From: Candidatus Krumholzibacteriia bacterium | GTDB lineage: Bacteria > Krumholzibacteriota > Krumholzibacteriia > LZORAL124-64-63 | DNA: 28,768 nt | Direction: 5' to 3' | NCBI GenBank assembly: GCA_029935695.1 | Contig: JAOZJV010000001.1 | Coordinates: 1 to 28,768, forward strand | Part shown: piece after piece, positions 3,795 to 19,437 of the stretch | Position numbering within the stretch: the stretch's first letter is position 1 | How the letters are laid out: every line of letters begins with the position of its first letter | Made by a program: the position numbers and the translations under genes | Notes under the pieces: model-generated | The model's database searches: none | Seen by the model: the letters and a program-made list of their open reading frames with translations, nothing else | What the model was told of the DNA's origin: nothing

Positions 3795-4879
3795 CAAAAC
3801 ACCACCAGACCAATGGAAGCCGAAGGAGCGACTCCGAACCAGTAATCATCAGGACCATTGTCCGCGAAGTAATACATCAATTCCAGCTGACCACTGACAC
3901 CAACATCCACTCGTCCCACTTCGAAGATGCGCTGCAAAGCCGACGCCCGGCAGCCCAATCCTTTGCGCCGATAATCACGACCCACATATTTGAGCATCTG
4001 GGTGCCGTCATACAAACCGCCAAAGGCCACGGTCACGCCCAAACTCCAGTGAGACCCGAAGGATTGGCTCATTTGCCCCATTCCATAGGTGAGTTTCACC
4101 CGGTGGAAAGTCACATCACTGCGGCGGCCCGGAGTGATGATTTCCCAGGTTTCATAGCGATTCTGCTGGTAACCAAAAGTGACTTCCTGGAAGAAAATCC
4201 AATGATCCCTGGGCGGCAGATGATCGGGATAGCCAAAGCGCAGGGTTCCATAAATTCCGATACCGGGGCGCACATCATCAACTCCACCGATGGCGGTGTT
4301 GTCCGTCTGAAATTTTCCACCAAGCATGAACGGCACCTGAAAACCAGCCACCAGTTCAGGATAATCTGGAGTTGAGTCCGGTCCCGCGTACTTGGGAAGA
4401 TTTTTGCGGAGGGCCCATTCGGGATTAAGGGTAGTGTCCAGACGGAATATCATGCCGCCATCTTCATTACCCTGGAAACGGGGATAGACCAGGAATTTGT
4501 CGGTTTCAACGAAACGATCGAAGGCAGGATCATATTCCCGGGGCACATAGACCCAATTGTTCATTTCGAAGTGCACGGCCACGTTGAGGTCGTAAATTCG
4601 CACGGTGTAAGCAGTGCCGGGTTGCAGCTGAGAGCTGCGCATAATAAAATGGCCGGGGAAGTCGTTTTCGATGTCCGCGTACAGACATTCACCATCAGGG
4701 GTGCAAAATTCCACTTCACCGATGGGAAAGAAATTGCCGTCTGAGTCCTGAACCGTGTATTGGATGAATCGGTGCACTCGGTCCTGGGCCTGAGCCGGCT
4801 TTGGAGCCAGCCATGGGGCCAGAACAGCGAGCATGAACACCAGTGGAATCCATGATCTTGGTTGTGAACTCAGGTGCAT
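3794..4879 (-). CDS. Exported protein: small N-terminal beta domain plus probable C-terminal outer-membrane beta-barrel
   Basis: ATG at 4879 after AAAGGA. Signal peptide ending AQA. C-terminal half has about 8 amphipathic strands (GIGIYGTLRFGY, QEVTFGYQQ, WSLGVTVAFGG, GVSGQLELMYYF, SASIGLVVF) and a terminal Phe. No family recognised. Confidence 0.6.
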   Translation of the reverse strand: MHLSSQPRSWIPLVFMLAVLAPWLAPKPAQAQDRVHRFIQYTVQDSDGNFFPIGEVEFCTPDGECLYADIENDFPGHFIMRSSQLQPGTAYTVRIYDLNVAVHFEMNNWVYVPREYDPAFDRFVETDKFLVYPRFQGNEDGGMIFRLDTTLNPEWALRKNLPKYAGPDSTPDYPELVAGFQVPFMLGGKFQTDNTAIGGVDDVRPGIGIYGTLRFGYPDHLPPRDHWIFFQEVTFGYQQNRYETWEIITPGRRSDVTFHRVKLTYGMGQMSQSFGSHWSLGVTVAFGGLYDGTQMLKYVGRDYRRKGLGCRASALQRIFEVGRVDVGVSGQLELMYYFADNGPDDYWFGVAPSASIGLVVF

Positions 4880-5181: not shown

Positions 5182-7074
5182 TCACCGAACCAGGGACATC
5201 TTACCTGTTTCAAGAGTTGTCCCTTGCCGAATACTGTATGAATAGATTCCCGAGGCGAGACTCCGGCCACCATCATCCTGACCAAGCCAGGGAATCTCGT
5301 GTTCGCCGGCTGCCAGGTGTTCATTCAAAACCGTTGCCACACGGGCGCCGGCCACATCGTAGATCACTAACTCCACCAGCCCCTGCTCCTGCAACTCAAA
5401 GCAAATGGATGTGCGTGGATTGAAAGGATTCGGGTAGCAATAGGAAGCAAATTTCAGATTTGACCCGGGTACACCGCTCAGCTGCGGCAGGCGCACCAAC
5501 TCGATTCCCTCACCGATCCCCAGATTGCGACTGTATTGCATATTGACCGGATCGTTCCAATGCTCGTGAACACCCAGGCTGGACAAGGATTGCACGTCGC
5601 CTTCATGGTCCGGATCGTAAAAGGTGCCTGAAGGCGGGTTGGCTGCCAGAGCCGCCTCGTGCAGGTAATCATCAGTGCCTTCCTGCTGGGGATACAGCCG
5701 GGGATCTCCCTCAAGTTGCATAATATCCAAACACACCGATTCAATGGCCACCGGATCCAGAGAGGCGAAGAGGCTGTTGGTCCAGTCGTTTTCGAAAGGA
5801 TCGTTGGCCCAGCGCAAGGGCTCATGATCGTCAGGATGACAGCCAGCGTAAAGACCATCAATTAAGTACAGCAGGGTTTTCCCACCCAACTGACTGTGGC
5901 CCATCAGATCGATAATGGCACGGTAATTTTCTGAATCCGGTGTCTGGTAGGCCAAACTCTCATGCAACTCCATAAACCCGTCTTCACCAGGATATCTGAT
6001 TAGCGACCCATAGTGGTTTTTCGCGCAAAAGGTAACCCCCGCGCCCATGTGACTTTTGAAGTTGGCCAGGTTGATGAAGTAAGTGGCCTGAGCGTATGAT
6101 TCCAGAATGTAGTCCTGCTGAATCCCAGTTGGGTGGTTGCTCCAATAAAGGGAGACGGTCGAGTTTTGTGCCGCAACACGAGGATTTTCTGGCGTACCGC
6201 CCTGATGGTCCAGGTAATGTACATCAGGAAATTCTCCAGCCAGCATGGCATGATACTGGTTGGGAAAAAGGGACAGGGGATCACCGATGGTTATGTCTGC
6301 CTGCTGCACACCTGCGAAATGCACCAGCTGCCGCAGCAAGGCAAGCATCACCTGGGGAGATGTGTTCATGTAGTCCATGTTGGAGACGAGATCATAAGAC
6401 TCGGCGTCGGTCCCGCCCCACCCCGGCAAATAATGACATCCGACAAGATTGACTTTGATCATTATTTTCTGCCCTGAAGTGTAGCCGACATCACCATTGC
6501 CATGTTCAATGTTGAAATACCGAAACATGGCATCCCAGGCGGAGAATTCATTGTCCTGTCCGGCAAGAGCCAGAATATTCGAGGATAGCATTTGCCCGAC
6601 AACTGTCTCGCTAGTGTGCTCGGGTTCCCACCAATGACCATCTCCAGGTCCATCCCAGTCTGTGGCCGCAGGTTCGTGGTACCAGACAACGCGTCCCGGA
6701 TGAATGCCTTTGGCCTCACCAATCGGTTCATTTCCAATTTTCAGTGAAGCCAAAGCAGGAGAGCTGGGCTGACCAAGCCAGGTGGCAGCTCCAAAAACCA
6801 GAGCCAGGGACAGGCAAACCCACCCTGCTGCCCATCGATTCTCATTAAAACAGGTTTTTCCACGACGCAGCAGATATCCGGAAGTGAAGACACCAATGAC
6901 CCAAAGCACAAAGGCACTGGCCAGAGGAAAAGCTGCCCGCTGGCATGGATAAGCAGCACGGCTGGGCTTGGGAATAACCCGTATCAAGAACCACAACAAG
7001 GCTAAAAAGCCCGCCAGAAATGGAAATACTCGTGTACCAAAATGTCGTAGGTTTTCAGGATAACTCAGCCGCAT
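5182..7074 (-). CDS. DUF362-domain protein with N-terminal hydrophobic leader and C-terminal FlgD-Ig/Por-type sorting-like domain
   Basis: GEAKGIHPGRVVW, KIMIKVNL, INLANFKSH..AGVTFCAKNHYG and DPVAIE motifs typical of DUF362. C-terminus YPNPFNPRTSICFEL...IYDVAG...SGIYSY...KMSLVR. Confidence 0.75.
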   Translation of the reverse strand: MRLSYPENLRHFGTRVFPFLAGFLALLWFLIRVIPKPSRAAYPCQRAAFPLASAFVLWVIGVFTSGYLLRRGKTCFNENRWAAGWVCLSLALVFGAATWLGQPSSPALASLKIGNEPIGEAKGIHPGRVVWYHEPAATDWDGPGDGHWWEPEHTSETVVGQMLSSNILALAGQDNEFSAWDAMFRYFNIEHGNGDVGYTSGQKIMIKVNLVGCHYLPGWGGTDAESYDLVSNMDYMNTSPQVMLALLRQLVHFAGVQQADITIGDPLSLFPNQYHAMLAGEFPDVHYLDHQGGTPENPRVAAQNSTVSLYWSNHPTGIQQDYILESYAQATYFINLANFKSHMGAGVTFCAKNHYGSLIRYPGEDGFMELHESLAYQTPDSENYRAIIDLMGHSQLGGKTLLYLIDGLYAGCHPDDHEPLRWANDPFENDWTNSLFASLDPVAIESVCLDIMQLEGDPRLYPQQEGTDDYLHEAALAANPPSGTFYDPDHEGDVQSLSSLGVHEHWNDPVNMQYSRNLGIGEGIELVRLPQLSGVPGSNLKFASYCYPNPFNPRTSICFELQEQGLVELVIYDVAGARVATVLNEHLAAGEHEIPWLGQDDGGRSLASGIYSYSIRQGTTLETGKMSLVR

Positions 7075-7265: not shown

Positions 7266-8333
7266 TTAACGGACCAACGCCATGCGCTGAGTTTCCACAA
7301 ACGATCCTACTTCCAAACGATAAAGATAAGTTCCCGATGGCATGGCCAAACCGCTGTCGCTGCGGCCGTCCCACAGAACTTCACTGGCGCCTGCCTGTTC
7401 GGTGGCTCCATCGCGCAGGGTTCTGACCTGGCGACCCGCCAAATCATACACCGTCAGACGAACAGCGCCGGCTTCGAACAACTCGTAACGAATCTTGGTC
7501 ATGGGGTTGAACGGGTTGGGCTGGGCGGCCATCAGACGGGCCGGAGCCTGAGGCATCAACAGGCCCTGATCCGGCGCGGCGGATGACAGGTCGTGAATAA
7601 ACGCGGCGCCGCCGGTGGAATGATACTGGGGATAAGGATTGGTGAACGGGACCCAGTCTCCACCGATTCCCTGGCTCAGGTCATAAGAGTAGCCATCGAC
7701 ACCATCATCACCACGGGTGGCCAGAATGTACACGGTGTTGTTGCCCACGGCCATGGCCCGGCCTGAAGAATTGCTGGCAGGGAAAGGATCGACAATTTCA
7801 ATCATTTCGCCGGAGTCGATGTTGATGGAATAGAGACCGGTGTTACCGTACTCGGTGTATCCGTAAAGCAGATCGTCTGCAGGGTTGTAGTCCAGAGCAA
7901 AGAAGCGGAACCCGGTGCCGGTGTAGACATCAACTGCCAGGGTTGCATCACCAGTGGCAGGATCAATGGAGTAAATTCCCTTGGGAGTGGCGTAGTTGGA
8001 GTATCCGTAAAGGGTGTCGCGGCCATAAGCCAGGCCGGAGATATCTACGCTGATGGTGGATTGCAACACGGGCGGATGACCCGCCATATCGGCAAGATAC
8101 AGACGCGTGGTGAAAGCACCGTTGCAGAGATACACCTGACCGTCTGGCCTGGACGCAGCGGCGCTGACATCAAAAGAGAAGCCAGAAGTCCATTGTACAT
8201 TGGGAAAACCATCCAGATCGGATGTCTGGGTGGCGGCCGTGTTTCCTTCCAGTCCGACGAAGAGGGTTCCCGCACCGAAAGCAGGGATCGCCACGGTGAG
8301 AATGCAGGCTGTCAATAGGATGCGAGTGAACAT
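7266..8333 (-). CDS. Secreted beta-propeller-like protein with FlgD-Ig/Por-type C-terminal domain
   Basis: Signal peptide (..AIPAFG). Blade-like repeats ISGLAYG..TLYG..GIYSIDPATG, FALDYNP..LLYG..GLYSINIDSG, RAMAVG..VYI. C-terminus QPNPFNPMTKIRYEL...SGTYLYRL...RMALVR. Confidence 0.72.
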   Translation of the reverse strand: MFTRILLTACILTVAIPAFGAGTLFVGLEGNTAATQTSDLDGFPNVQWTSGFSFDVSAAASRPDGQVYLCNGAFTTRLYLADMAGHPPVLQSTISVDISGLAYGRDTLYGYSNYATPKGIYSIDPATGDATLAVDVYTGTGFRFFALDYNPADDLLYGYTEYGNTGLYSINIDSGEMIEIVDPFPASNSSGRAMAVGNNTVYILATRGDDGVDGYSYDLSQGIGGDWVPFTNPYPQYHSTGGAAFIHDLSSAAPDQGLLMPQAPARLMAAQPNPFNPMTKIRYELFEAGAVRLTVYDLAGRQVRTLRDGATEQAGASEVLWDGRSDSGLAMPSGTYLYRLEVGSFVETQRMALVR

Positions 8334-8508: not shown

Positions 8509-9114
8509 CTAACGAAAAACCAGTAAAGGCTTCAAAACCCTCGATGAAACAACCCCAGGTATAGCTTCAAAATCCGTTGTACCAGGCTTCGTAAAACAAT
8601 CTGAAAGAAGCCCCCAAAAAGTACCATGCAGAACCGCCTCCAATGATGTTGCATTGACCCGTGGCAGCTCTTTCAAGTCGCGAGCCTTCTCAAGGAGTTC
8701 AACATCCTGGTTCCGGTGCAAATCAATTCTATCTTCAATCCAAGGGTCAATTTCTGATAGATTCTCCATGTATGCTTGAAGCGTTCCCCGGTGTTTGCTC
8801 ATATACACCAGGAGAAGCTCCAATTCCCTTAGATAGCTCTGTAAAGGAGAAAGGGCTGGATCGGTACGTGTGAATGCCCTAATACCCTCACGAACATGGA
8901 GGTGATGGCCGACTAAATCATTCAGGATTTGTTGCTTATTTGGATAGTGCTCTGCCAACTGCTCAACAGGAATTCCTGCTCTCTTTGCCATCATGTTCAT
9001 AGTAATTTGTTCATAACCAAATTCTGCAATAAGGCCATTTGCAGCAATCAGGATTATCTGCCGAACATCTTTAATAGAGTCAATATCCTCAGAAAACGGG
9101 TCTTTAACCATCAT
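8509..9114 (-). CDS. TetR/AcrR-family regulator with atypical recognition helix
   Basis: N-terminal IILIAANGLIAEFGYEQITMNMMAKRAGI...YPNKQQIL. Start placed at ATG 9114 after AAAGGA; ATG 9177 is an alternative. Confidence 0.7.
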   Translation of the reverse strand: MMVKDPFSEDIDSIKDVRQIILIAANGLIAEFGYEQITMNMMAKRAGIPVEQLAEHYPNKQQILNDLVGHHLHVREGIRAFTRTDPALSPLQSYLRELELLLVYMSKHRGTLQAYMENLSEIDPWIEDRIDLHRNQDVELLEKARDLKELPRVNATSLEAVLHGTFWGLLSDCFTKPGTTDFEAIPGVVSSRVLKPLLVFR

Positions 9115-9475
9115 TGCCTGATTATCCTTTGTCGAAGTTCTGCCTTGCCATAACCCTGGCCATGGCTTTGTCCTCATAATTCAGGGCTTGACCCTGGCCA
9201 GAAAAGTTGCCTTTTCATGGAGACAAGCACCCAACTGGTAGATGTCACCAGTAAAATCAACAACCGCCAAAGACTCCTTGAGGTGGATGCAATAGCAGGC
9301 AGTTTTGCAATCTGAATTCGAAATCATGACCTACTCCCTTCACATGAAAACCACGAAGCTTCAGAATCTGCCCTCATTAATTGAATCCATATTCACAACA
9401 ATATCAAACTAACCACAATCATGGGCAGTGTCCAGCTTAATCAATTACAAATTAATGCATTTACAAAATAAACAC

Positions 9476-9503
9476 TTGAAACCTGAGCTAATTTTCATAT
9501 TTT
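9476..9503 (+). promoter_or_regulatory. Candidate sigma70 promoter of the tetR-tolC-MFP-RND operon
   Basis: TTGAAA-N16-TATTTT, flanked by the direct repeat ATAAACACTTG at 9468 and 9522. Confidence 0.35.
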
Positions 9504-9548
9504 GAGGCAAGATTCATTTCCATAAACACTTGTGCCTTGGAGAACTTA

Positions 9549-10193
9549 ATGAACGACCAAAACACCCCTTCGATGCGGGAGTTGCGTAAAGAAAGATCCA
9601 TGGAAGCTGACCGTGTGGATATCCTTGATACTGCCTCCAGGCTGTTCGCATCAAAAGGCATTGAGCAGACTTCCATGTCTGACATTGCAGACGAAACAGG
9701 TTTCTCTGTCGGGAAAATCTATAAATTTTTCCCCAGCAAGAAGAGCCTGTTTTTACACATTGTTGGTGCTTTCCTGGAGCATTTGCACAACTCCACTTTG
9801 CAGGTAAATGACCCAGACCTGCCGCCCCTCGACCGACTGAAAAACGTCCTGCGTGCAGCCATTGACGTAGCCAATTCTGACCCGAATCGAGTCCTTATTC
9901 ACTTGCGCGAAAGCCCCTCACTCTTTGCCGAGCTTAAGATTCACTACCAGGACATCTACGTCACCACAAACTATGAGTTGCTTAAGGAAGCCATGCAGGC
10001 TGGTCAGCTGAAACCTCACGACCCAAAACAACTGGCAATTATGTTGGTCGGTGCTGTTGATGCACTCTTTTCACACCTTGCCAACTCTGGCCAGGAGAAC
10101 CCCTTCACCCCCATTCCATCCCTGGTTTTTAACCACATGATTACACCGCTAATGACAGACCCTGCTGCAATGGACGAGGAAAAACAAAAATGA
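9549..10193 (+). CDS. TetR/AcrR-family transcriptional regulator
   Basis: Canonical HTH ILDTASRLFASKGIEQTSMSDIADETGFSVGKIYKFFPSKKSLF. ATG 9549 after TGGAGA. Stop overlaps the tolC-like ATG (ATGA). Confidence 0.9.
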   Translation: MNDQNTPSMRELRKERSMEADRVDILDTASRLFASKGIEQTSMSDIADETGFSVGKIYKFFPSKKSLFLHIVGAFLEHLHNSTLQVNDPDLPPLDRLKNVLRAAIDVANSDPNRVLIHLRESPSLFAELKIHYQDIYVTTNYELLKEAMQAGQLKPHDPKQLAIMLVGAVDALFSHLANSGQENPFTPIPSLVFNHMITPLMTDPAAMDEEKQK

Positions 10194-11623
10194 AAGATCA
10201 ACATACCTTAGCGTGCATATCACCTTCTGCACCGCGGGCATTTACAATCGTATTGGTTCTTCTGGCCATTACGACAAGTAGTGTCGGAGCGGCCCAGGAA
10301 CCTGATATCGATTTCAACCATTTCACCCTGGACCAGGCTGTTAAACTGGCCCTTGGCCAAAGTGAATTCCTTCAGCAGGTCCAGGCAGAAATTGAAGGGT
10401 CGAAGGGGTCATTACTTGCCACAAAAAGCGGCCAGTTGCCTCATTTGGACTTGACCGGCCAGTATGCCAGAAACCTTAAAAAACCAGCATTCTTCCTGCC
10501 TCCTGACATGGGTGATGCCTTTGGTGTTTCCGGCCCCATCCCCATGGGCAGTGACAACGATGTCATGGCTGCAGCCACTATCAGTTACAACCTTTGGACT
10601 GCAGGCCGCTTATCGGCAGCAGAGGGTGTGGCTTCTGAAATACTGGCAGCAACACAATACAAGGAGAAAGCGGTAGCGGACGGAGTTTTGTTCAGTGCCG
10701 TCATAGCCTACCACGATGTATTGCTGGCCGAAGAAAATCTTAAAACAGCCCAAAAGTCACTCGCTGCAGCAGAAGAATCACAAAGAATTGCCAAGGCCGG
10801 TTTTGAACAGGGTACTTTAAGCAATTTCGACCATCTTCGTGCCCAGGTGGAAGTTGCAAACCGCCAGGCTCCCCTCATCGCGGCTCATAATAATCTGGCC
10901 CAAACCATCCTGGTTCTTCAACGGCGTTGTGGCTTACCAGCAGACTCCATTGTTGTATTGGCTGATAGTTTGGGAGGGGTTTCCATTCCTGCAGATCAAG
11001 ACTCGCTTGTTGAACAAATGCTCCACAGCAGTGCTGAAATTCAAGTCCTTAACCACACTGTTGCCGCAGCCAAACAAGGTGTATTGCTCCGCGAAGCAGG
11101 AAGCAAACCCATGCTCTTACTCAGTGGCAACTACGCTCTTCAGAGCCAGTGGGACACCGGTTTGTACCCCAATGAAGACGAGATGGCAGCCAGCTCCAAA
11201 GTGGCCCTCGGTTTGGCCTTCCCTATCTTCGATGGGAAAAGGACATCTGGATTGGTTTCCCGCGCTTCTGCCGACCTGCGCAAGGCCGAGCTGGAGCTTG
11301 AAAGAGTCACCCGGGAAAAAGAACTTTCAGTTCGTCAGGCATGGTTGGGTTTAGCCAACTCCCTGGCTGCCCTGGAAGGCCGTACTGAAGCAGTATCCCT
11401 TGCCGAGGAAGCTTTTCGCCTTGCGGTGGTTCGGGTAACCAACGGCCTGGCCACACCTCTGGAACGGTTGGACGCTGAAGTGGCTATGACTTCTGCCCGA
11501 GTCCAGAAATCTGCCGTTGAATACGCTTGCAATATTGCTGAGGCCCGTCTGGCACTTGCCATTGGAAATGCCTCCACAGCTTACCTTGAAACAACTAATT
11601 CACAGGAGATAGATAATGAATAG
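10190..11623 (+). CDS. TolC-family outer-membrane efflux protein
   Basis: Signal peptide, TLDQAVKLAL, two OEP helical repeats (GFEQGTLSNFDHLRAQVE; GLATPLERLDAE). Confidence 0.9.
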   Translation: MKDQHTLACISPSAPRAFTIVLVLLAITTSSVGAAQEPDIDFNHFTLDQAVKLALGQSEFLQQVQAEIEGSKGSLLATKSGQLPHLDLTGQYARNLKKPAFFLPPDMGDAFGVSGPIPMGSDNDVMAAATISYNLWTAGRLSAAEGVASEILAATQYKEKAVADGVLFSAVIAYHDVLLAEENLKTAQKSLAAAEESQRIAKAGFEQGTLSNFDHLRAQVEVANRQAPLIAAHNNLAQTILVLQRRCGLPADSIVVLADSLGGVSIPADQDSLVEQMLHSSAEIQVLNHTVAAAKQGVLLREAGSKPMLLLSGNYALQSQWDTGLYPNEDEMAASSKVALGLAFPIFDGKRTSGLVSRASADLRKAELELERVTREKELSVRQAWLGLANSLAALEGRTEAVSLAEEAFRLAVVRVTNGLATPLERLDAEVAMTSARVQKSAVEYACNIAEARLALAIGNASTAYLETTNSQEIDNE

Positions 11624-12722
11624 TCAGGCACGCGGCCCAGCCCGCATCATTGGCACCGTAGTCTTTGTCATTGTTCTGGTAGCTCTGTTCGCCTGGCGTT
11701 TCCAGGTGCTGGGAGTTACCCACTCAGTGGCCAGCATTCGCTCTATTCACGAAGAAGAAGGCAAACCCATCGAAGTGGTTTCAGTAAGGCGGGACAACCT
11801 TACAAACCATGCCATCCTGGCTGGAACGGTGGAAGGAATCGAACAATACTCCCTGGTATCGAACAACCGTTTGCGAGTAGACAAAGTCGTCCACTCAGCA
11901 GGCGACATGGTTGAAGCAGGCGATCCAATCATTCTTTTGGAAAAGACCGCCTCCAGCCCCATGCAGCACTCCTACAACAAGTATCTCGCACTCTATGAAG
12001 ATGCAGAGCGAGACTCCGAACGGATGGCTGTTCTGTTTGCTGAAGGTGCTGTATCGGCCCAGGCACTGGATAAGGCCAAAATGCAACTCCAGGTTGCCCG
12101 CACGAACCTGAATGATGCCAAGGAAGCAACCGATCTGCACGCCCCCCTTGCAGGCCAGGTGATGAGTGTTCTGGTCAGTGCTGGTGAAACCGTCAAACCC
12201 GGCAACCCACTGGCCTGGGTGGCCAGAACCGATACGGTAAGGGTTGTGTTCCAGGCAGGCAGCCGTCAGGCTCTGTCACTTAATGTTGATCAACCCGCAA
12301 TCTGGCGCAGCCCGGTTGCTGGCGATATCCTTTCCGGTTCCATCGACCGTCTGGATCTCGCCGCAAACCCAAAAACTCACCTCCTTGAAGGTGATGCCCT
12401 CTTCCACAACCTCAATGGTCTGCTGCTTCCAGGTATCCTGGTATCCATCGAAGTTGAAACCGGAAACCGCCAGAATGTCTTGACCATTCCCGTGGGTGCG
12501 ATGGAGAAAACGGCCAACGGTTACGCCGTATATGTCCTCGTTGAAGATGGATCGGGCGGTAAAGTTGTTCGCTTCCAGGAAATCCAAATCGGAATGCAGA
12601 CATCAGACCTGATCGAAGTTACAGCTGGATTAACCGAAAACGAACAGGTGGTTGTTTTTGGTAAATCAAACCTTAAGGACGGCGATCTGGTTCAAGTCAT
12701 CGACATGCGGGAGGAAGGATAA
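11616..12722 (+). CDS. RND efflux periplasmic adaptor (membrane fusion protein)
   Basis: N-terminal TM, lipoyl half-motifs (GDMVEAGDPI; LHAPLAGQV..V.AGETVKPG), C-terminal IEVTAGLTENEQVVV.G. Confidence 0.92.
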   Translation: MNSQARGPARIIGTVVFVIVLVALFAWRFQVLGVTHSVASIRSIHEEEGKPIEVVSVRRDNLTNHAILAGTVEGIEQYSLVSNNRLRVDKVVHSAGDMVEAGDPIILLEKTASSPMQHSYNKYLALYEDAERDSERMAVLFAEGAVSAQALDKAKMQLQVARTNLNDAKEATDLHAPLAGQVMSVLVSAGETVKPGNPLAWVARTDTVRVVFQAGSRQALSLNVDQPAIWRSPVAGDILSGSIDRLDLAANPKTHLLEGDALFHNLNGLLLPGILVSIEVETGNRQNVLTIPVGAMEKTANGYAVYVLVEDGSGGKVVRFQEIQIGMQTSDLIEVTAGLTENEQVVVFGKSNLKDGDLVQVIDMREEG

Positions 12723-12723
12723 A

Positions 12724-15700
12724 ATGGGCTTGATACGCACTCTTGTTGACAGGCCCGTCCTGTCCACCATGATCGTTCTGGCCCTTGTTGTCATGGGCCT
12801 CAACGGTTATCTGAAACTGAATCTGGAATTGATCCCCCGCGTCGACTATCCGGTCATCGTGGTCACAACTGTATACCCGGGAGCCTCCCCTGCCGAAGTG
12901 GAAAGCCAAATAACCAAACGCATCGAAGATCAGGTGGCCACTCTGGCCAACATTGAAGAGCTAATTTCCGAATCCCGGGAAAGCGTCTCCATTGTTACTG
13001 TTCAATTCTCCCTGGAAATGTCTCAGGACCAGGGTGCCATCGACGTCAAGGATAAGGTGGACGCCATCCGTGGCGACTTACCCGATGCCGCCGAAGACCC
13101 TGTGATTGCCAAGTTTGAACTTGGCGGTGGAGCGGTGGCCCAGATTGCAGTTTCCGCATCACGCCCCATGGCTGAAATTTATCGGGTTGCTGATGAAGTC
13201 ATTAAGGAACGCCTCAGCCGTATTGATGGAGTGGCCGGTGTTGTCATCACAGGCAAGCGCCAGCGTGAAATACGAGTGACGGTCAAACCTGAACGGTTGC
13301 GAGCCTATGGGCTTACTCTGGGCGGCCTGCGTCAGGTTCTGCAAGCTGGAAACCTGACTATCCCCGCAGGTAACATCACCCGTGGTGGCCATGAAGTCAC
13401 TTTGCGGCTTAATGGTGAAATCGAAAAGCCATCTGATTTGGAATCTTTCAGAATTCCGTTGCCAACAGGGGGAACGATAGTCCTTTCAGAGATTGCAGAT
13501 ATCGTTGATACAACCGAAGAATTGCGTGAATTCACGACCCTGAACCGGAAGGAAGTCATCGGCATCAACGTTATGAAGCGTTCTGATGGCAATACGGTCA
13601 AAGTAGTTGATGGCGTGGAAGAAGTGCTTGCAGAGCTGCGGACAGAACTGGGCTCTGATTTCACCATTGAAGTTGTTACTGAGGGCCGTTCCTTTGTTCA
13701 GGCTTCAGTCGATGATGTGATTAAAAACATCGGGATCGGAATCCTCCTTACGGGAATACTACTGTTTATTTTCCTTCATGATTGGCGGCAGACTCTTATT
13801 GCTGCCCTGGCCATGCCAGTGTCCGTTGTGGCAACATTCCTCTTGATGGAAAGCAATGGATTCACCCTGAATGTCATGACTTTGATGGCACTGGGTATAT
13901 CAATTGGTACCCTTGTGACAAACTCCATTGTTGTACTGGAAAGCATCGCCCGACGGATTGCCGATGGCGAGAACCCACATGAAGCTGCAATCATAGGAAC
14001 GCAGGAAGTTGCTGTGGCTGTGTTCGCATCGACCCTGACAAACATCGTTGTATTCACGCCAATCGCCTTCATGTCTGGAATCATTGGCCGCTTCTTTTTC
14101 CAGTTTGGCCTGACTGTTGTGTTTGCGACCCTCTTCTCTCTGGTGGTCAGTTTCTCTCTGGTACCAATGTTGGCAGCAAGGTTGCTTAAACCTGGCAAAG
14201 GCATTGGTTCAGGTAATAGTCTTGGAGCCAAACTGGCCCGTTCATGGGATGGCTTTTACGGAAGCCTGGAAAATGATTACCGCCAGGCATTGACCTATGC
14301 TCTCAAACATCGGTGGCAACCTCTGGTTTTCACCTCCATTCTTCTGGTCGGTTCTTTTTACCTGCTCAGCTGGGTGGGTGGAGAGTTTATCCCCGTAACG
14401 GATCAAAGTAAGTTGTTGGTCAAGGTTGAACTCCCTGAAGGCACAAGCTTACACCGAAGCAGAGAAGTCTCGGCGCGTATTGAGAACATCCTCTGGCAGC
14501 AACCGGAAACTTCTGCCGTTCTATCGCGGGCAGGAGGAGGCCAATTGGGTGTCGAGGATATTGAGATACTTGTCCGTATGATCCCTCCCGTTGAGCGTGA
14601 AATCAGCTTGATGGACTTCATTGCCCGGATCAGACCGACCCTGGCTGTGATACCTGACGCTAAGATCAATGTCATCGCCTCTGGTGAAGGAAAACGGCCT
14701 GAACCGGAGCTTATTTTAGAAGTGCTGGGAGACAATCCGGAAACTCAGGTAGCAGCTGCTGAATCCCTTTTTGGAATAATGAGAGGGATTCCTGGCTTGG
14801 TTGACGTTACATCAAGCCAGGCCACAGGGAAGCCTCAAATTGAGTTTATACCCAGACGACTTCAACTGGCGGCCCATGGACTGACCGCAGCTCAGGTGGG
14901 CTTTGACCTGCGCACCGCTTACGAAGGTGAGAAAGCGGGTGTCTTCCGGCAGGACGGAGAAGAGTTCGACGTGGTTGTGCGTTACCCAGCATCTTCACGT
15001 CAGGACCCTGCAGACTTGTCTGACCTTCCTGTTGCCTCACGCAGCGGGTATATCGTGCCATTGGCTGATGTGATGGAAATGGTAGAGGGTGTGGGCACCC
15101 CCACTCTTTACCGAGCGGACAAGCAACGCAAAATAGAAGTGACCGCCAATATTGGATCAGGCAGCCTCAGTGGAATGAGGAAGATCATTGACAGCGGGTT
15201 GGCGGAGGCTGACATCCCCGATGATGTAACCATTAAATACGGTGGAAACGCAGAACATCAGGATGAGGCCTTTGCTTCTATTATCGGGGCACTTATTCTG
15301 GCCATTATTCTGATCTACATTGTTATGGCTGCCATGTTGGAAAGTTTCATTCACCCCATGACGGTTATGGTGACCTTGCCCCTGGGATTGATTGGACTTG
15401 CTGTGGCGTTGTTCTTCACTGGCCAGACGATTAATATCTTCTCACTGATGGCCATGATCATGTTGATTGGTATTGTGGTGAATAATGCCATCCTGCTGCT
15501 GGATTACACGGGGCAACTGAGGTCCAAGGGGATGTCGTTGACGGAGGCTTTGCTTGAGGCCTGCCCCACTCGTTTGCGGCCCATCATCATGGCTAATCTG
15601 GCCATTGCCATTGGGATGATTCCGCAGGCCATGGGAGGTGCCGGGTCGGAGTTCAGGACACCCATGGCTGTGGTTCAGATTGGTGGTGTGCTTATTTCGG

Positions 15701-15783
15701 CGGTGTTTACTCTGTTTGTTATTCCTATTGTGTACTCGCTTTTTGATGGGATGACTTTTGCTGGGCGGAAGTCTGAAAAGTAA
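12724..15783 (+). CDS. AcrB/AcrD/AcrF-family RND permease lacking the canonical proton-relay residues
   Basis: RPVLSTMI, YPGASPAEVESQIT..IE, PDAAEDPVI, GGEFIP..D, ESFIHP, RLRPIIM motifs. ATG 12724 directly after the MFP stop. Confidence 0.93.
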   Translation: MGLIRTLVDRPVLSTMIVLALVVMGLNGYLKLNLELIPRVDYPVIVVTTVYPGASPAEVESQITKRIEDQVATLANIEELISESRESVSIVTVQFSLEMSQDQGAIDVKDKVDAIRGDLPDAAEDPVIAKFELGGGAVAQIAVSASRPMAEIYRVADEVIKERLSRIDGVAGVVITGKRQREIRVTVKPERLRAYGLTLGGLRQVLQAGNLTIPAGNITRGGHEVTLRLNGEIEKPSDLESFRIPLPTGGTIVLSEIADIVDTTEELREFTTLNRKEVIGINVMKRSDGNTVKVVDGVEEVLAELRTELGSDFTIEVVTEGRSFVQASVDDVIKNIGIGILLTGILLFIFLHDWRQTLIAALAMPVSVVATFLLMESNGFTLNVMTLMALGISIGTLVTNSIVVLESIARRIADGENPHEAAIIGTQEVAVAVFASTLTNIVVFTPIAFMSGIIGRFFFQFGLTVVFATLFSLVVSFSLVPMLAARLLKPGKGIGSGNSLGAKLARSWDGFYGSLENDYRQALTYALKHRWQPLVFTSILLVGSFYLLSWVGGEFIPVTDQSKLLVKVELPEGTSLHRSREVSARIENILWQQPETSAVLSRAGGGQLGVEDIEILVRMIPPVEREISLMDFIARIRPTLAVIPDAKINVIASGEGKRPEPELILEVLGDNPETQVAAAESLFGIMRGIPGLVDVTSSQATGKPQIEFIPRRLQLAAHGLTAAQVGFDLRTAYEGEKAGVFRQDGEEFDVVVRYPASSRQDPADLSDLPVASRSGYIVPLADVMEMVEGVGTPTLYRADKQRKIEVTANIGSGSLSGMRKIIDSGLAEADIPDDVTIKYGGNAEHQDEAFASIIGALILAIILIYIVMAAMLESFIHPMTVMVTLPLGLIGLAVALFFTGQTINIFSLMAMIMLIGIVVNNAILLLDYTGQLRSKGMSLTEALLEACPTRLRPIIMANLAIAIGMIPQAMGGAGSEFRTPMAVVQIGGVLISAVFTLFVIPIVYSLFDGMTFAGRKSEK

Positions 15784-15900
15784 TAACGGTGTTTTGATGG
15801 AGATTGCTGGCGGCGATTGAAAACCATTGAGGAATTCAGTTGTCGTCAGCAGCCCTTCCCAGCTGGTCAAATGAATTCAACCAGGACAAACAGGTGCAAT

Positions 15901-16374
15901 ATGATTTTAAAACCAATAGGCACAATCCACAGTCCTTTCACCAACCTGAAAGGCATGCCCATCCAGCCCACTGGCGCTTCCGGCGTCAAAGGAACTGTCG
16001 AGGTCTTTGAAGAATATGCCGACGGCCTGCTGGACCTTGATGGCTTTTCCCACATCATCCTTTTGTATCAGTTTCATCGCAGTGACGGGTTCAAACTGAG
16101 AGTGGTCCCCTTCATGGATACCGTGCAGCGGGGCATCTTTGCCACCCGCGCTCCCAAAAGGCCCAACGCCATTGGCTTGTCCATCGTTCAGCTGGAAAAA
16201 ATTGAAGGCAGGATTCTTCACATTGAAGGTGTGGATATTCTTGATGGTACACCGGTTGTTGATATCAAACCCTACGTGCCGGACTTTGATTATCCGGAAA
16301 ATGTTCGTGCGGGCTGGCTGGACAGTTCACCTAAAACAGTGACTGAAAAGCGATCGGATGATCGGTTTATTTAG
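15901..16374 (+). CDS. trmO: TrmO/TsaA(YaeB)-like SAM-binding tRNA t6A37 N6-methyltransferase, single-domain form
   Basis: LKPIGTIHSPF, GLLDLDGFSHIILLY.FH, GIFATRAP.RPNAIGLS.V, GVDILDGTPVVDIKPY. Start uncertain (15871 or 15901). Confidence 0.8.
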   Translation: MILKPIGTIHSPFTNLKGMPIQPTGASGVKGTVEVFEEYADGLLDLDGFSHIILLYQFHRSDGFKLRVVPFMDTVQRGIFATRAPKRPNAIGLSIVQLEKIEGRILHIEGVDILDGTPVVDIKPYVPDFDYPENVRAGWLDSSPKTVTEKRSDDRFI

Positions 16375-16379
16375 ATTAA

Positions 16380-16407
16380 GGCCGCCAACCCTCCCAGGTT
16401 GGCGGCC
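16380..16407. terminator. Hairpin between convergent trmO-like and 1003-aa genes
   Basis: Perfect 11-bp stem GGCCGCCAACC-CTCCCA-GGTTGGCGGCC; no strong U tract. Confidence 0.6.
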
Positions 16408-16425
16408 AACAAAGACCTCAAAACA

Positions 16426-19400
16426 TCACTTCACCAAAGCCATTTTCTGAACCCGGACCTCGCCCCCGGCCCGTACTTCATAGAAATAAACTCCTGATGA
16501 AACCTCGCCGCCCTGGCCGTTGGTGCCATTCCACATCACCTGTCCTGCCCCCGCGTCATGTTGCTCATCCAGCAGGGTTTTGACCAGATTGCCGCGCATA
16601 TCGAAGACTTTGATGCTCAGACGACCATCCCTTGGCATCATAAATTCGATGGTCGTATTGGGGTTGAAGGGGTTCGGATGATTCACGGCCTGCAGCGTCT
16701 CCAACCCGGGAGTGTCAGCAATAATATAAGGGATTTCCTGCCCAAAATTATCCAACACCTGGCGCAGCAGATACGAGCGCGCCGACATGCCAAAACTGTT
16801 GCCTTCGCTGCCAGGGTCAGTTCTCACAAATTCGAAAGCGAATGGCAGTGAGATGACTGTGCCCTGGTTCTGGCACAAGGTGGCAGCCGAATAGTTGTAG
16901 TCCGGGTTGCCCTGAGGGTTGGTGAATGAAGCCAGCCGTTGGGCTCCTTCCAAAGGCACCACCGCGTCAAAGCTTTTAAAACCAGGACAGCCACCATAGG
17001 CCAACCAGGAATTGTCCGCTTCAAACACCGGGTTGCCGTCATCAACTCGCACAACGGATGACGACTGATTATGAATCATTGGCCGGATGTTGGAGTTCAG
17101 CACCTGCAAACCAAATGTCTCCGCCAACACCTGTTGGGTGAAAGCTGAAGTCAGGTTGAGCTGGGACAGGAAGTTATCTCCGGTAGCAAAAAGATGCTTG
17201 TCCTCCATTTGCAGCCATTGGGAGATCAACCAGGCATCGGCCTCGGTCATGACTTCGCTGTAATATGAACCGCTGCTGTAAAGGATGATGGAATACCCGG
17301 CCAATTGGGCGGGAGTTGCTCTCTGGCCCAGTCCATTACCCAGGGCGCTCCATGGAGCAGAAGTATCATAAACATCGCAGTTCTCGCCGACTGTCAGATC
17401 ATTATTCCGCAGGGCTGAATACCAGGCGGCCCGGCCATCTTTGCCCCCGTCATTCCAGAACAGAACCGAAGCACTTTGAACCAGGTCGTCACCCTCTTGC
17501 ACCACCGACGGCAAGGCGCGCACGGTGAACAGTGGATCGTAGGCCATGGGGCTGTCCATGCGGCTGAAACCGCTGGTGTCCGCGGGCATGGTGGTTGTTT
17601 GATACTCGCCCAGATAATCGTCGGTGCCGGAGATGAAATAGTGCAGGATATCCCCTGGAAAAAGAAAACCGGTGTCTGGTAAATCGAAGGCAAAGCGGTC
17701 GGGAATCAGCTCGCCTTCTTCGTTGCGAACCTGCCATCCTTCGGTGGCTCCCACATTGGGCAAACCACTGGTGCGGTAGGGGTCGAAAGCAGGGTTGGCT
17801 TTCAGGCGGTAATTCAAGAGCGGCTGTCCGTACAGCACCGAATCTTCACGCAGCAGTGTGACGTTGGCCACGATGGAGTCGCCGGCCTGCGTGAGATACT
17901 GACCGCCGATTTCCACACCGGTGGCCATGTCGAAACGCACACTGTTGGATGCAGGGTTTTCCAGATCAAGCTGACCGCTGGCTGGCAGGGCATCCTGAGC
18001 CATATGTTCCGGGTGCGCTCCAATGGCAGGACCATAAATCTCATAAGCGCTCAATCGCACATTGTCGTAATAGGGTGCCGGAGTTCCGTTGAAACCACAC
18101 CAGCCCCAGGAATGGCCAATTTCAATCAACCCCAAAGAAACCTGGACATATTTGGCGCCGGTTACGACCAAAGGCGAAATGTCCATTCTCTGCCGGGAGT
18201 ACCCGTGACCGTAATATAAATAACCAAGGTTATCCCACGGTGCGTTTTCAATATCCCCGGGATTTTCGGACGTGGTGGAGCGCACATTCCACAATCTGAA
18301 AATTCCTGGTTCATCCCAATCCAGACTCATATGGGAATAGACATCGTATTCCAGGTAATATCCATTGGTTCCCAGGGACGAAACATCAATCACCGGAGAG
18401 AGCACCAGATTATCCAGATGGTGTGCCATCCCCAGCAAACCACCGGTGTTGTTGACAATGAACCCAAAGGGGCCATAACACCAATCGAGGCACATGGTGC
18501 CGCCGGTGCCGGGAACAACCTGTCCATCATCAATGAAAGCGACCTGGGAAGACGAGTTTTGCTGGCAGGTATCAATGTCATCCAGGTTCATCCAGAGTTT
18601 GGAAAAATCTCCCACACCCTGCACAATGCCATGCTGCCAATCACCCATGGTTCCGTCTTCAAAATCAGAAAAGGAATTGATGTCGCCGTTGTCCATCTGA
18701 ACGCGAATGTCATCCACCTGGCAGGCACCAGACCCGGCATAATAACAGTCTTCATCGGACCAACCGCCGTCCGATTGCACAATAAACTGCAGACGCACCT
18801 GATCGCCTGCGGGGCCGAAGTAATCATTGGGTTGATAGGTCACCGATTCCTGCAGATGATAGTTGGTGGCCTGGCCATCAGTCTGGAACAGATAAACAAA
18901 ATCTCCGCCGGAAAAATCGGCACGCAGATAAACATAGTCATAGCCATCTTCCACATCGTAATTCAACCAGGCATCAACTGTTACCTGGCAAGGCTGCCCA
19001 GGGTCAGCCACAGTTCCCTGCCATTCGATGATTTCATGGTAGTTGTTGCCGTATCCACCCTCCACATCGGGCGAATCACAGGCTGGATACTGCAGGCTGC
19101 CGCACCAAACAGCGTTGTTGCCTGCTCCATGGCCATTCAAACCCTCTGCGTGATAAGTGGCAACATGCCAGGCATTGCCTTCGGGAACTGTCTGGTCCAG
19201 GCCGGTCCAGCCATTCCAGTCGGTGGATCCAGACGGAGTTTCGAATTGGCCATTGTGCCAGGCTCCTGAACCGTGAGGCCCTATGAGCAGGACCGTATCG
19301 ACGACAGTTTTGGCATGATCGGCAGGCCCGCCTGTGATGTGGTTTTCGGTATTTGAAAATTTCCATTGGGGTGTGGCGGAAAACGCCAGGGCAGGCAGTG

Positions 19401-19437
19401 CCAGAAGTAAGATGAGAGCCAGGTGTAAAATTTTCAT
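16426..19437 (-). CDS. Large secreted multidomain protein with FlgD-Ig/Por-type C-terminal domain
   Basis: Signal peptide MKILHLALILLLALPALA. Two jelly-roll-like segments (GQFETP..WNGW; SFSDFEDG.MGDW). Alpha/beta segment (VLFWNDGG, YSIILYSSG, HLFATGDN). C-terminus HPNPFNPNTTIEF...SGVYFYEV...KMALVK. Confidence 0.8.
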   Translation of the reverse strand: MKILHLALILLLALPALAFSATPQWKFSNTENHITGGPADHAKTVVDTVLLIGPHGSGAWHNGQFETPSGSTDWNGWTGLDQTVPEGNAWHVATYHAEGLNGHGAGNNAVWCGSLQYPACDSPDVEGGYGNNYHEIIEWQGTVADPGQPCQVTVDAWLNYDVEDGYDYVYLRADFSGGDFVYLFQTDGQATNYHLQESVTYQPNDYFGPAGDQVRLQFIVQSDGGWSDEDCYYAGSGACQVDDIRVQMDNGDINSFSDFEDGTMGDWQHGIVQGVGDFSKLWMNLDDIDTCQQNSSSQVAFIDDGQVVPGTGGTMCLDWCYGPFGFIVNNTGGLLGMAHHLDNLVLSPVIDVSSLGTNGYYLEYDVYSHMSLDWDEPGIFRLWNVRSTTSENPGDIENAPWDNLGYLYYGHGYSRQRMDISPLVVTGAKYVQVSLGLIEIGHSWGWCGFNGTPAPYYDNVRLSAYEIYGPAIGAHPEHMAQDALPASGQLDLENPASNSVRFDMATGVEIGGQYLTQAGDSIVANVTLLREDSVLYGQPLLNYRLKANPAFDPYRTSGLPNVGATEGWQVRNEEGELIPDRFAFDLPDTGFLFPGDILHYFISGTDDYLGEYQTTTMPADTSGFSRMDSPMAYDPLFTVRALPSVVQEGDDLVQSASVLFWNDGGKDGRAAWYSALRNNDLTVGENCDVYDTSAPWSALGNGLGQRATPAQLAGYSIILYSSGSYYSEVMTEADAWLISQWLQMEDKHLFATGDNFLSQLNLTSAFTQQVLAETFGLQVLNSNIRPMIHNQSSSVVRVDDGNPVFEADNSWLAYGGCPGFKSFDAVVPLEGAQRLASFTNPQGNPDYNYSAATLCQNQGTVISLPFAFEFVRTDPGSEGNSFGMSARSYLLRQVLDNFGQEIPYIIADTPGLETLQAVNHPNPFNPNTTIEFMMPRDGRLSIKVFDMRGNLVKTLLDEQHDAGAGQVMWNGTNGQGGEVSSGVYFYEVRAGGEVRVQKMALVK

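Follow-up and report, generated by a model that had tools for sequence, protein, structure and literature searches.

How a permease of the RND superfamily may be energised when the residues that relay protons in AcrB are missing is the question raised by a gene at positions 12724..15783 (+) of the DNA studied here, a stretch of 28,768 nucleotides from a Candidatus Krumholzibacteriia bacterium (the window). According to the original prediction, the permease has lost the proton relay within an otherwise intact tripartite operon, and another coupling ion, a heterotrimer with a permease encoded elsewhere or a non-pumping conduit or scaffold was offered as explanation. The gene is full length, as had been claimed. 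Its product of 1019 aa matched Pfam ACR_tran (PF00873) with 808.6 bits (cut-off 28), residues 4-1007 covering profile positions 2-1020 of 1021 in one stretch. By this full-length match to a profile that spans 12 TM segments and two large periplasmic loops, it belongs to the AcrB/AcrD/AcrF family of the RND superfamily.

Upstream of the permease gene and on the same strand (+), the window contains a gene for a TetR-family regulator as gene 1 of the cassette (9537..10193; Pfam TetR_N, 2.1e-15), a gene for an outer-membrane factor (OMF) of the TolC/OEP family (10190..11623; Pfam OEP, 1.5e-48, in two stretches) and a gene for a membrane-fusion protein (MFP), the periplasmic adaptor (11616..12722; NCBIfam RND_mfp, 167 bits with a cut-off of 94.9; Pfam HlyD_D23). 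The OMF was also matched by NCBIfam type_I_sec_TolC (3.1e-32, under the cut-off of that model), and the N-terminus of the MFP is an uncleaved membrane anchor. All four genes abut or overlap: the 3′ end of the TetR gene and the start of the OMF gene share 4 nt, while the ATG of the RND gene lies 1 nt past the MFP stop and has GGAGG upstream. Permease, MFP and OMF are thus encoded together as a tripartite RND efflux system, and gene order and Pfam matches in the window bear out the predicted coupling to an MFP and a TolC-type OMF with no second permease in the operon. The same TetR-OMF-MFP-RND cassette was found in three distant genomes (loci L015, L016 and L017) with different flanks, the TetR gene holding the same position; furthermore, homologues of the OMF, MFP or TetR genes resided upstream of the RND gene in 26 of 30 loci with enough room. 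No additional conserved cassette gene was detected in the window and L015-L017, the flanks of which vary; the TrmO gene downstream is not conserved. When positions 9100 to 16500 were scanned for promoters and terminators, the number of sites did not exceed that in shuffled sequence.

The relay positions were determined by a MAFFT alignment of the permease with AcrB, MdtB and MdtC of E. coli K-12 (from NC_000913), to which it aligned end to end, and HMMER alignments to PDB chains concurred. Both methods place T399 (13918-13920, +) and N400 (13921-13923, +) on TM4 at AcrB D407 and D408, within the core S393-I-G-T396-L-V-T399-N400-S401 (13900..13926, +). On TM10, N920-N921 (15481..15486, +) correspond to K940-N941. 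TM11 contains R950-L-R952-P-I-I-M-A957-N958 (15571..15597, +), in which R950 (15571-15573), R952, A957 (15592-15594) and N958 align with R971, R973, T978 and S979. The substitutions had thus been read correctly from the sequence (T and N for D407 and D408, N for K940, A for T978, R971 kept), and their codons lie exactly where they had been placed. Since the motifs flanking the relay (IG.LV..SIVV.E, GIV.NNAI and R.RPI.M) are identical or near-identical to those of AcrB, MdtB and MdtC, an error of register is excluded. Of the canonical HAE-1 relay (D407, D408, K940, R971, T978), only R971 is kept. It is well founded that AcrB transport depends on the missing residues: substitutions at D407, D408 or K940 are inactive, T978 is also essential, and every RND transporter characterised so far has one or more acidic residues for ion binding in the middle of its membrane domain (PMC8277102), a feature that the permease does not share.

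We also asked if charged residues elsewhere make up for the loss. A scan of every alignment column did not reveal an acidic or basic residue that the acid-less group had acquired; compensating residues, which would have spoken against the original prediction, were thus not seen. A comparison of the charged content of 39 acid-less, 21 D-N/N and 89 DD/K representatives revealed the loss of D407, D408 and K940 as the sole changes, and none of the 39 contained a relocated acid. In the permease the spans of TM4 to TM10 do not contain any charged residue, and charges are located no more than 5 residues from the span ends. Provision of an acid in trans by the membrane anchor of the MFP was also considered and rejected, as the N-terminal helix of this protein has neither D nor E.

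One might suppose that selection on the gene is relaxed and that it is decaying or was inactivated recently. Beyond the absent relay residues themselves nothing speaks for this, and we regard its probability as negligible. The frame is open over its full length, and all of 117 homologues (117/117) with identities of 56-98% keep T-N, N920, N921 and N958. The trait is thus invariant across this whole range, and several phyla possess it. The common possession of T-N and N920 also means that these residues result neither from chance nor from a sequencing error. Comparison with an 87%-identical orthologue yielded a dN/dS of 0.047 over the entire gene; in the membrane domain, where constraint is strongest, it was 0.026. 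A pseudogene or relaxed selection is therefore rejected, and close orthologues with DD/K next to a relaxed copy, the other finding that would have contradicted the prediction, were not encountered. The acid-less relay is a lineage trait under strong purifying selection.

To delimit this lineage, an acid-less clade was defined (AcrB numbering) by a non-acidic residue 407 along with N408, T448-N449, T478, S481 and V939-N940-N941, and by placement in a tree with the trait columns masked. The permease carries T, N, T-N, T, S and V-N-N at these positions and was placed inside the clade, whose support with masked trait columns was 99 (SH-like, FastTree) and 97 (SH-aLRT, IQ-TREE). Nearly all acid-less relatives fall into this one clade, which is essentially monophyletic and spans Krumholzibacteriota, Fibrobacterota, Lentisphaeria, Planctomycetota and Sumerlaeota. 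It includes a cultured member, Victivallis vadensis DSM 14823 (Lentisphaeria; locus L063), which makes the question of energisation directly testable. A motif census of 185,579 species genomes gave 90 matches, and all fetched ones (80/80) were located within RND ORFs of five or more phyla; in the phylum of the host, 60 of 201 genomes contained the motif in one copy, while control matches amounted to 0. The permease thus belongs to an old and widespread clade of several phyla. The anatomy of the relay loss was predicted correctly; its interpretation as an event in this gene was not, as the loss is a hallmark of the whole clade. A search of full-text literature, with most subscription journals outside its reach, yielded no description of such a clade, and this branch of the RND permeases is apparently undescribed so far. 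Among NCBIfam models, NF033617 RND_permease_2 was the best match (747.5 bits) without reaching its curated cut-off of 1250, and the MdtB/MuxB model (cut-off 1584) gave 473 bits; the clade is therefore not covered by any equivalog model. Annotation is affected, because such genes are now labelled ordinary multidrug RND permeases.

The closest paralogues of the permease (32% identity) are found in the D-N/N branch, to which most paralogues in the genome belong (e.g., on contigs C356 and C834). This branch has in common with the permease N408, V-N-N on TM10, the motif LVxNSIVVLE and T at AcrB position 449 or nearby polar residues, but it keeps D407, T978 and an invariant R971 and is devoid of the clade's signature T351, N449, T478 and T884. 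D408N and K940N, which had been counted among the relay losses, are hence ordinary in this much larger branch, and what distinguishes the clade is D407T, as had been noticed, together with relaxed positions T978 and R971. What is special about the clade is that its last Asp is gone as well. In 51 acid-less rows, position 971 was K in 27 and R in 21, and position 978 was T in 17, A in 15, S in 12 and M in six, while neither residue varies in the DD and D-x groups. Such a relaxation is expected if the old relay is out of use.

The best solved relative of the permease is E. coli MdtB (PDB 9lyq; 9lyq_B, 1.7e-125, residues 4-1011, 27% identity). MdtB and MdtC resemble it in architecture, in the motifs flanking the relay on TM4, TM10 and TM11, in H877, T880 and T884 on TM9, and in E976 and R978 ahead of TM12. 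However, they retain D-D, K-K, R and T where the permease has T-N, V-N, R and A, and they form a tandem-encoded heterotrimer, whereas the permease has no partner gene. According to MdtB2C logic, an Asp-bearing paralogue encoded elsewhere might supply the energy coupling as an obligate partner subunit. The relationship to MdtB and the approximately 20 RND genes of the genome, most of them D-N/N and some arranged as tandem pairs (contigs C356, C834 and C587), would suit such an arrangement. Yet the gene lacks the two tandem paralogous permease genes typical of MdtBC, MuxBC and SmeJK; a further RND ORF was absent from 80 loci of the motif class (at least 1.5 kb were available upstream in 48 and downstream in 36 of them), from L015-L017 and from the window. 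Where a locus contained several RND ORFs, these were complementary pieces of one gene. Moreover, the permease has its own MFP, OMF and regulator beside it, and the known heterotrimeric pairs are all tandem and keep DD/K in both subunits. We therefore consider a heterotrimer highly unlikely; of the three explanations that had been offered, this one is without support from synteny.

What the clade has in place of the relay is a set of Asn, Thr and Ser residues of its own on TM2, 4, 5, 6, 8, 10 and 11. T343 on TM2 (13750..13752, +; AcrB V351) is T in 44 of the 51 acid-less rows; the D-x and DD groups have A or V instead. The pair T439-N440 on TM5 (14038..14043, +; AcrB V448-L449) occurs as T and as N in 50 of 51 rows each, while DD relatives have I, D or L. 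On TM6, T469 and S472 (14128..14139, +; AcrB M478 and S481) are kept in 45 and 50 of 51 rows, respectively; S481 of AcrB is a hydrogen-bond partner of D408 (PMC4359379). On TM10, N is present in 50 of 51 rows at each of the positions 920 and 921. N408 is kept in 49 of 51 rows, whereas a few members have A, V or I at position 407, which can therefore not be an obligatory ligand. The clade-specific polar residues of TM2, 4, 5, 6, 8 and 12 are spaced i+3/i+4 and thus lie on a shared helix face. From the helix positions and the published AcrB contacts we infer that the polar residues cluster in space, and the helices that bear them are those flanking the water channels of AcrB (PMC4359379). We are thus dealing with a natural, strongly conserved multi-phylum lineage without D407, D408 and K940, which yet possesses a full pump cassette and new invariant polar residues.

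With a probability that falls just short of even, the clade as a whole has given up carboxylate proton coupling, either in favour of Na+ or another cation at an all-neutral Asn/Thr/Ser site or in favour of no ion coupling at all. If so, it would be the first class of RND transporters operating without a membrane-embedded acid. As the best explanation for the permease itself we tentatively propose, at somewhat less than an even chance, cation (Na+) coupling at a rebuilt neutral site of a functioning tripartite efflux permease. Judged from the sequence, the gene product would be the working inner-membrane permease of a TetR-regulated OMF-MFP-RND efflux system, in which a cluster of uncharged side chains, amides and hydroxyls, may replace the AcrB-type carboxylate/lysine relay. 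The putative cluster would comprise N400 (TM4), T439/N440 (TM5), T469/S472 (TM6), N920/N921 (TM10) and N958 (TM11), while T399 varies across the clade. This site may still bind the coupling ion, which, with neutral oxygen ligands only, would more likely be a cation bound there (Na+ or perhaps a hydronium-like species) than a carboxylate-borne proton. By binding and leaving, the ion would switch the TM4-6 and TM10-12 repeats in the way that protonation does in AcrB. If the pumps are active, such a coupling chemistry would be one so far undescribed for RND proteins, with implications for the way in which ion binding is converted into functional rotation and for efflux by gut and sediment anaerobes that rely on Na+.

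Cation coupling has to be weighed against a permease that is still driven by protons without a mid-membrane carboxylate, an alternative that we consider unlikely. Protons might pass along a water wire lined by Asn, Thr and Ser and be coupled by E406 (AcrB E414), D927 (E947), R950 and R952 near the cytoplasmic face, or hydronium might be held in a polar cage. Consistent with this idea, E414 is kept in 51/51 clade rows and D/E947 in 50/51, the polar residues of TM4, 5, 6 and 12 run from the centre towards the periplasm, and a few clade members (P0198, P0160 and P0140) have an acid at 408, 940 or 941, as if the site were still able to handle a proton. However, DD/K pumps conserve E414 and E947 just as well, without their replacing D407/D408 there, and R971, which partners them in AcrB, is relaxed to K or R in the clade. 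AcrB and MexB of P. aeruginosa, the canonical HAE-1 proton antiporters, resemble the permease in fold, length and MFP and OMF context, and AcrB N941, E414, R418, S481, R971 and R973 are conserved in it, but identity is 24% and D407, D408, K940 and T978 are T, N, N and A. The central acid common to characterised transporters and the inactivity of AcrB with substituted D407/D408 (PMC8277102) also argue against proton coupling.

The permease might also be a conduit or scaffold that is not energised. Its porter domain would then be cycled by thermal motion, and periplasmic amphiphiles exported by other transporters would exit via the OMF down their gradient, or the permease would merely hold the MFP-OMF channel together. 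The absence of a titratable residue from the core and the relaxation of R971 and T978 agree with this, and neutral Asn-Asn contacts could conceivably engage and disengage the two membrane repeats without ion binding (our reading of PMC4359379). But the membrane domain is more constrained than any other part of the protein, and a passive anchor would hardly be expected to gain approximately ten polar residues that have become invariant. This role thus appears quite improbable. We know of no precedent for it.

In favour of cation coupling, VexEF-TolC of Vibrio cholerae is the sole RND drug pump reported to need Na+ (PMC8277102, PMC10872679), and an involvement of Na+ has been suggested for an entire clade of RND proteins, Clade H or the proposed HAE-4 family, which is enriched in saline habitats (PMC10872679). 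The likeness of VexEF/HAE-4 to the acid-less clade is a functional analogy only. Eukaryotic examples are also available. Dispatched and Patched are presumably Na+-driven proteins of the RND fold, whose central TM4/TM5/TM10 site we take to bind Na+ and not H+. They are monomeric lipid or sterol transporters without MFP or OMF, with Asp or Glu at the core of their sites; against a Na+ reading, even the known Na+-coupled RND proteins such as Dispatched would accordingly still use Asp ligands. In the host genome, one Rnf/Nqr-type cluster is the only hint at Na+. The c subunit of its F-type ATPase is devoid of what we take to be the Na+-binding signature and looks proton-type, which suggests that the host runs a proton economy and also fits the proton-driven alternative. 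The hosts of the motif include soil and freshwater MAGs besides those from gut and saline habitats, which likewise does not favour Na+.

The AcrB, MdtB and MdtC proteins of E. coli K-12 were aligned with the RND permease of the window (12724-15783, + strand) and its homologues to establish the register of the relay. At the positions of AcrB D407 and D408 the permease exhibited T399 (codon 13918-13920) and N400 (13921-13923), at K940 N920 (15481-15483) and at T978 A957 (15592-15594), while R971 was retained as R950 (15571-15573). The original prediction was thus borne out for all five residues, and its codon coordinates were exact. The register was identical in HMMER pairwise alignments, and the motifs flanking the relay were near-identical. 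Charges in the twelve hydrophobic spans of the permease were confined to at most five residues from the span ends, and the TM4-TM10 spans contained no charged residue at all.

The permease (1019 aa) is the last gene of a cassette on the + strand, preceded by the genes for a TetR-family regulator (9537-10193), an outer-membrane factor (OMF; 10190-11623) and a membrane-fusion protein (MFP; 11616-12722). Its ATG at 12724 lies one base past the MFP stop and follows a GGAGG sequence. The Pfam profile ACR_tran matched in a single stretch with 808.6 bits (residues 4-1007, profile 2-1020 of 1021), in agreement with the claim of a full-length permease with MFP and OMF partners. The protein belongs to the RND/ACR_tran family, and the cassette is a tripartite RND system. 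The permease scored under the cut-off of every NCBIfam model. Among solved structures its best relative was E. coli MdtB (9lyq_B, 1.7e-125); many AcrB, MexB and AdeB-type chains ranked next. Upstream of the cassette, a second TetR-family gene (8509-9177, - strand) diverges from the cassette's TetR gene.

Over 20 genes or gene fragments for RND permeases are present in the genome (978 contigs, 94% complete). Aligned with AcrB, most of these paralogues were of the D-N / N / T type (motifs LVDNSIVVLE, GIVVNNAI and RLRPILMT) and a few were DD/K or DD/R (residues at AcrB 407, 408 / 940). Since most paralogues are of the former type, D408N together with K940N is ordinary in a large branch. Among the aligned permeases of the genome, the Asp was absent from the window gene only; the distinctive step is the disappearance of the last carboxylate, along with that of T978. 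Contigs C356, C834 and C587 (L003 and other loci) carry tandem RND permease pairs; on C356, for example, a gene of 1145 codons adjoins one of 1096 codons. Such pairs resemble MdtBC in layout, on a D-N background.

An exhaustive HMMER search covered 1.84 billion cluster representatives, and the 150 nearest of these were grouped by residues 407/408/940. The DD/K group comprised 78 representatives plus a few DD variants, the D-N/N group 16 plus D-x variants, and about 40 representatives lacked an acid at 407, where T, N, S, A, V or I was followed by N, with N at 940. A column-by-column comparison of 39 acid-less, 21 D-N/N and 89 DD representatives revealed the loss of D407, D408 and K940 as the sole charge difference of the membrane domain; compensating acidic or basic residues, named at the outset as an outcome against the original prediction, were not gained in any column across the 39 acid-less representatives. 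The N-terminus of the MFP is an uncleaved membrane anchor without acidic residue, and therefore no carboxylate is supplied in trans by this protein.

Conserved polar residues were tallied in the alignment used for the trees, which has 51 acid-less rows. The signature consisted of T at AcrB position 351 in TM2 (44/51), S401 (37/51) and N408 (49/51) in TM4, T448 and N449 in TM5 (50/51 each), T478 (45/51), S481 (50/51) and S485 (44/51) in TM6, T884 in TM8 (45/51), V939, N940 and N941 in TM10 (50/51 each) and N979 in TM11 (29/51). The new polar residues on TM4, TM5 and TM6 are spaced i+3/i+4, and they lie on helices flanking the water channels of AcrB; on the cytoplasmic side these channels are at TM5/TM10 and TM4/TM11, and on the periplasmic side at TM2-TM4/TM11 (PMC4359379). 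D408 of AcrB is in contact with S481 and with the L442 backbone (PMC4359379). We infer that the new residues may surround one common site in the permease. Both AcrB partners of the acids, R971 and T978, were relaxed in the acid-less group. R971 was invariant in the 118 DD and D-x rows and was K in 27 and R in 21 of the acid-less rows; T978 was T in 117/118 of the former and T (17), A (15), S (12) or M (6) in the latter. Such a relaxation would be expected if the old relay were no longer in use and selection now acted on another polar network.

A search of 5.8 billion proteins yielded at least 120 homologues with 56-98% identity. Among the 117 full-length homologues listed, which were used for residue counts, T399, N400, N920, N921 and N958 were invariant (117/117). 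Position A957 had A (107) or S (10), and position R950 had R (63) or K (54). Against the orthologue of L016 (87% identical), Nei-Gojobori dN/dS was 0.047 over the whole gene and 0.026 within the membrane domain, the permease's most constrained part; these values are approximate as dS was near saturation. Close orthologues keeping DD/K beside a copy under relaxed selection, the other outcome considered at the outset, were thus not encountered. By these comparisons, the missing relay residues are neither decay nor error, and decay in particular is hardly conceivable.

For phylogenetic analysis the trait columns were masked ahead of tree building. Of the 51 acid-less rows, 50 formed a single clade in FastTree (169 rows; SH-like support 99), which also included the D-N protein P0141. 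The same clade was obtained with IQ-TREE (LG+C20 PMSF, quick search; 66 rows; SH-aLRT 97), where P0165 (D-S/S) was its sister and a DD/K group next out. A further acid-less protein, P0242 (S-N/N; entry P0242 / P0245) was placed within the D-N branch beside a D-N sister (support 100, both trees), and therefore the last TM4 Asp was lost at least twice. A few clade members had an Asp at a neighboring core position, namely at 408 in P0198 (N-D), at 940 in P0160 and at 941 in P0140; such proteins, which may represent naturally occurring intermediates or revertants, would be of use in comparing mechanisms.

The motif G-T-L-V-T-N-S-I-x-x-x-E was back-translated and scanned in one genome per species. 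The 185,579 species genomes gave 90 matches, and all 80 fetched resided within RND ORFs. Judged by record titles, the hosts belonged to Krumholzibacteriota, Fibrobacterota, Lentisphaeria (including Victivallis vadensis DSM 14823), Planctomycetota and Sumerlaeota, besides one Flavobacteriaceae MAG. In the window's phylum 60/201 genomes contained the motif, one copy each, with a patchy distribution by family (32/42, 25/86, 2/8, others 0); a reversed control pattern gave 0 matches.

The order TetR-OMF-MFP-RND was shared by three homologue loci, L015-L017 (60-87% identity), on long contigs with unrelated flanks; L017 likewise has two TetR genes ahead of the cassette. Of the 30 loci that leave 3.2 kb or more for such genes, 26 have homologues of the window OMF, MFP or TetR upstream on the same strand. 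The statement that the operon lacks a second permease gene also applied to its relatives: none was present in L015-L017, nor a second RND gene in the 80 motif loci (at least 1.5 kb upstream in 48 and downstream in 36), seeming extra matches being complementary fragments of a single gene. Unlike MdtBC-type pumps, the permease is not one of a tandem pair, and assembly into a heterotrimer with an Asp-bearing paralogue from another locus is very unlikely.

In contrast to AcrB-type proton antiporters, the permease lacks the defining relay. AcrB is inactivated by substitution of D407, D408 or K940, and the RND transporters studied each retain at least one central acid (PMC8277102). Na+ is used by one RND pump, VexEF (PMC8277102), and in a phylogenomic study a role of Na+ was proposed for the entire HAE-4 clade (PMC10872679). 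The acid-less permease would still bind a coupling ion, because its membrane domain is the most constrained part and has gained coherent oxygen-bearing side chains; a passive conduit or scaffold is, by this constraint, quite improbable. An all-neutral site suits a bound cation, most simply Na+, better than a proton, and the ion would be such a cation; coupling to protons in some other way appears rather unlikely. We tentatively favor coupling by a bound cation, although several points count against Na+. The genome's ATP synthase c subunit (G000 C782:4329-4508) lacks what we take to be the Na+ signature, and the sole hint of Na+ cycling is one Rnf/Nqr-type cluster (C440:1762-3968; RnfD-like, 408 bits). 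Moreover, some members of the clade have an apolar residue at 407, and hosts occur beyond saline or gut habitats. The ion-site residues of the F-type c subunit look proton-type (IEALTIY; helix 1 without Gln).

An acid-less RND clade was undescribed in the full-text literature searched, a scope mostly outside subscription journals. Such a permease contradicts the field's stated rule of a central acid and is testable in a cultured organism.

Three otherwise unrelated proteins of the window, all on the - strand, carry a FlgD_ig / Por_Secre_tail-type C-terminal domain, a type IX secretion sorting signal (5182-7074, with DUF362; 7266-8333; 16426-19437); T9SS machinery genes were absent from the window. 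The window also encodes a very acidic 1165-aa protein (300-3797, -), whose N-terminus resembles that of a lipoprotein and which contains five or more Calx-beta domains (Pfam 6e-50), and a gingipain-like cysteine peptidase (26686-28767, +; Peptidase_C25, propeptide and C-terminal Ig-like domain), which is open at the contig end.
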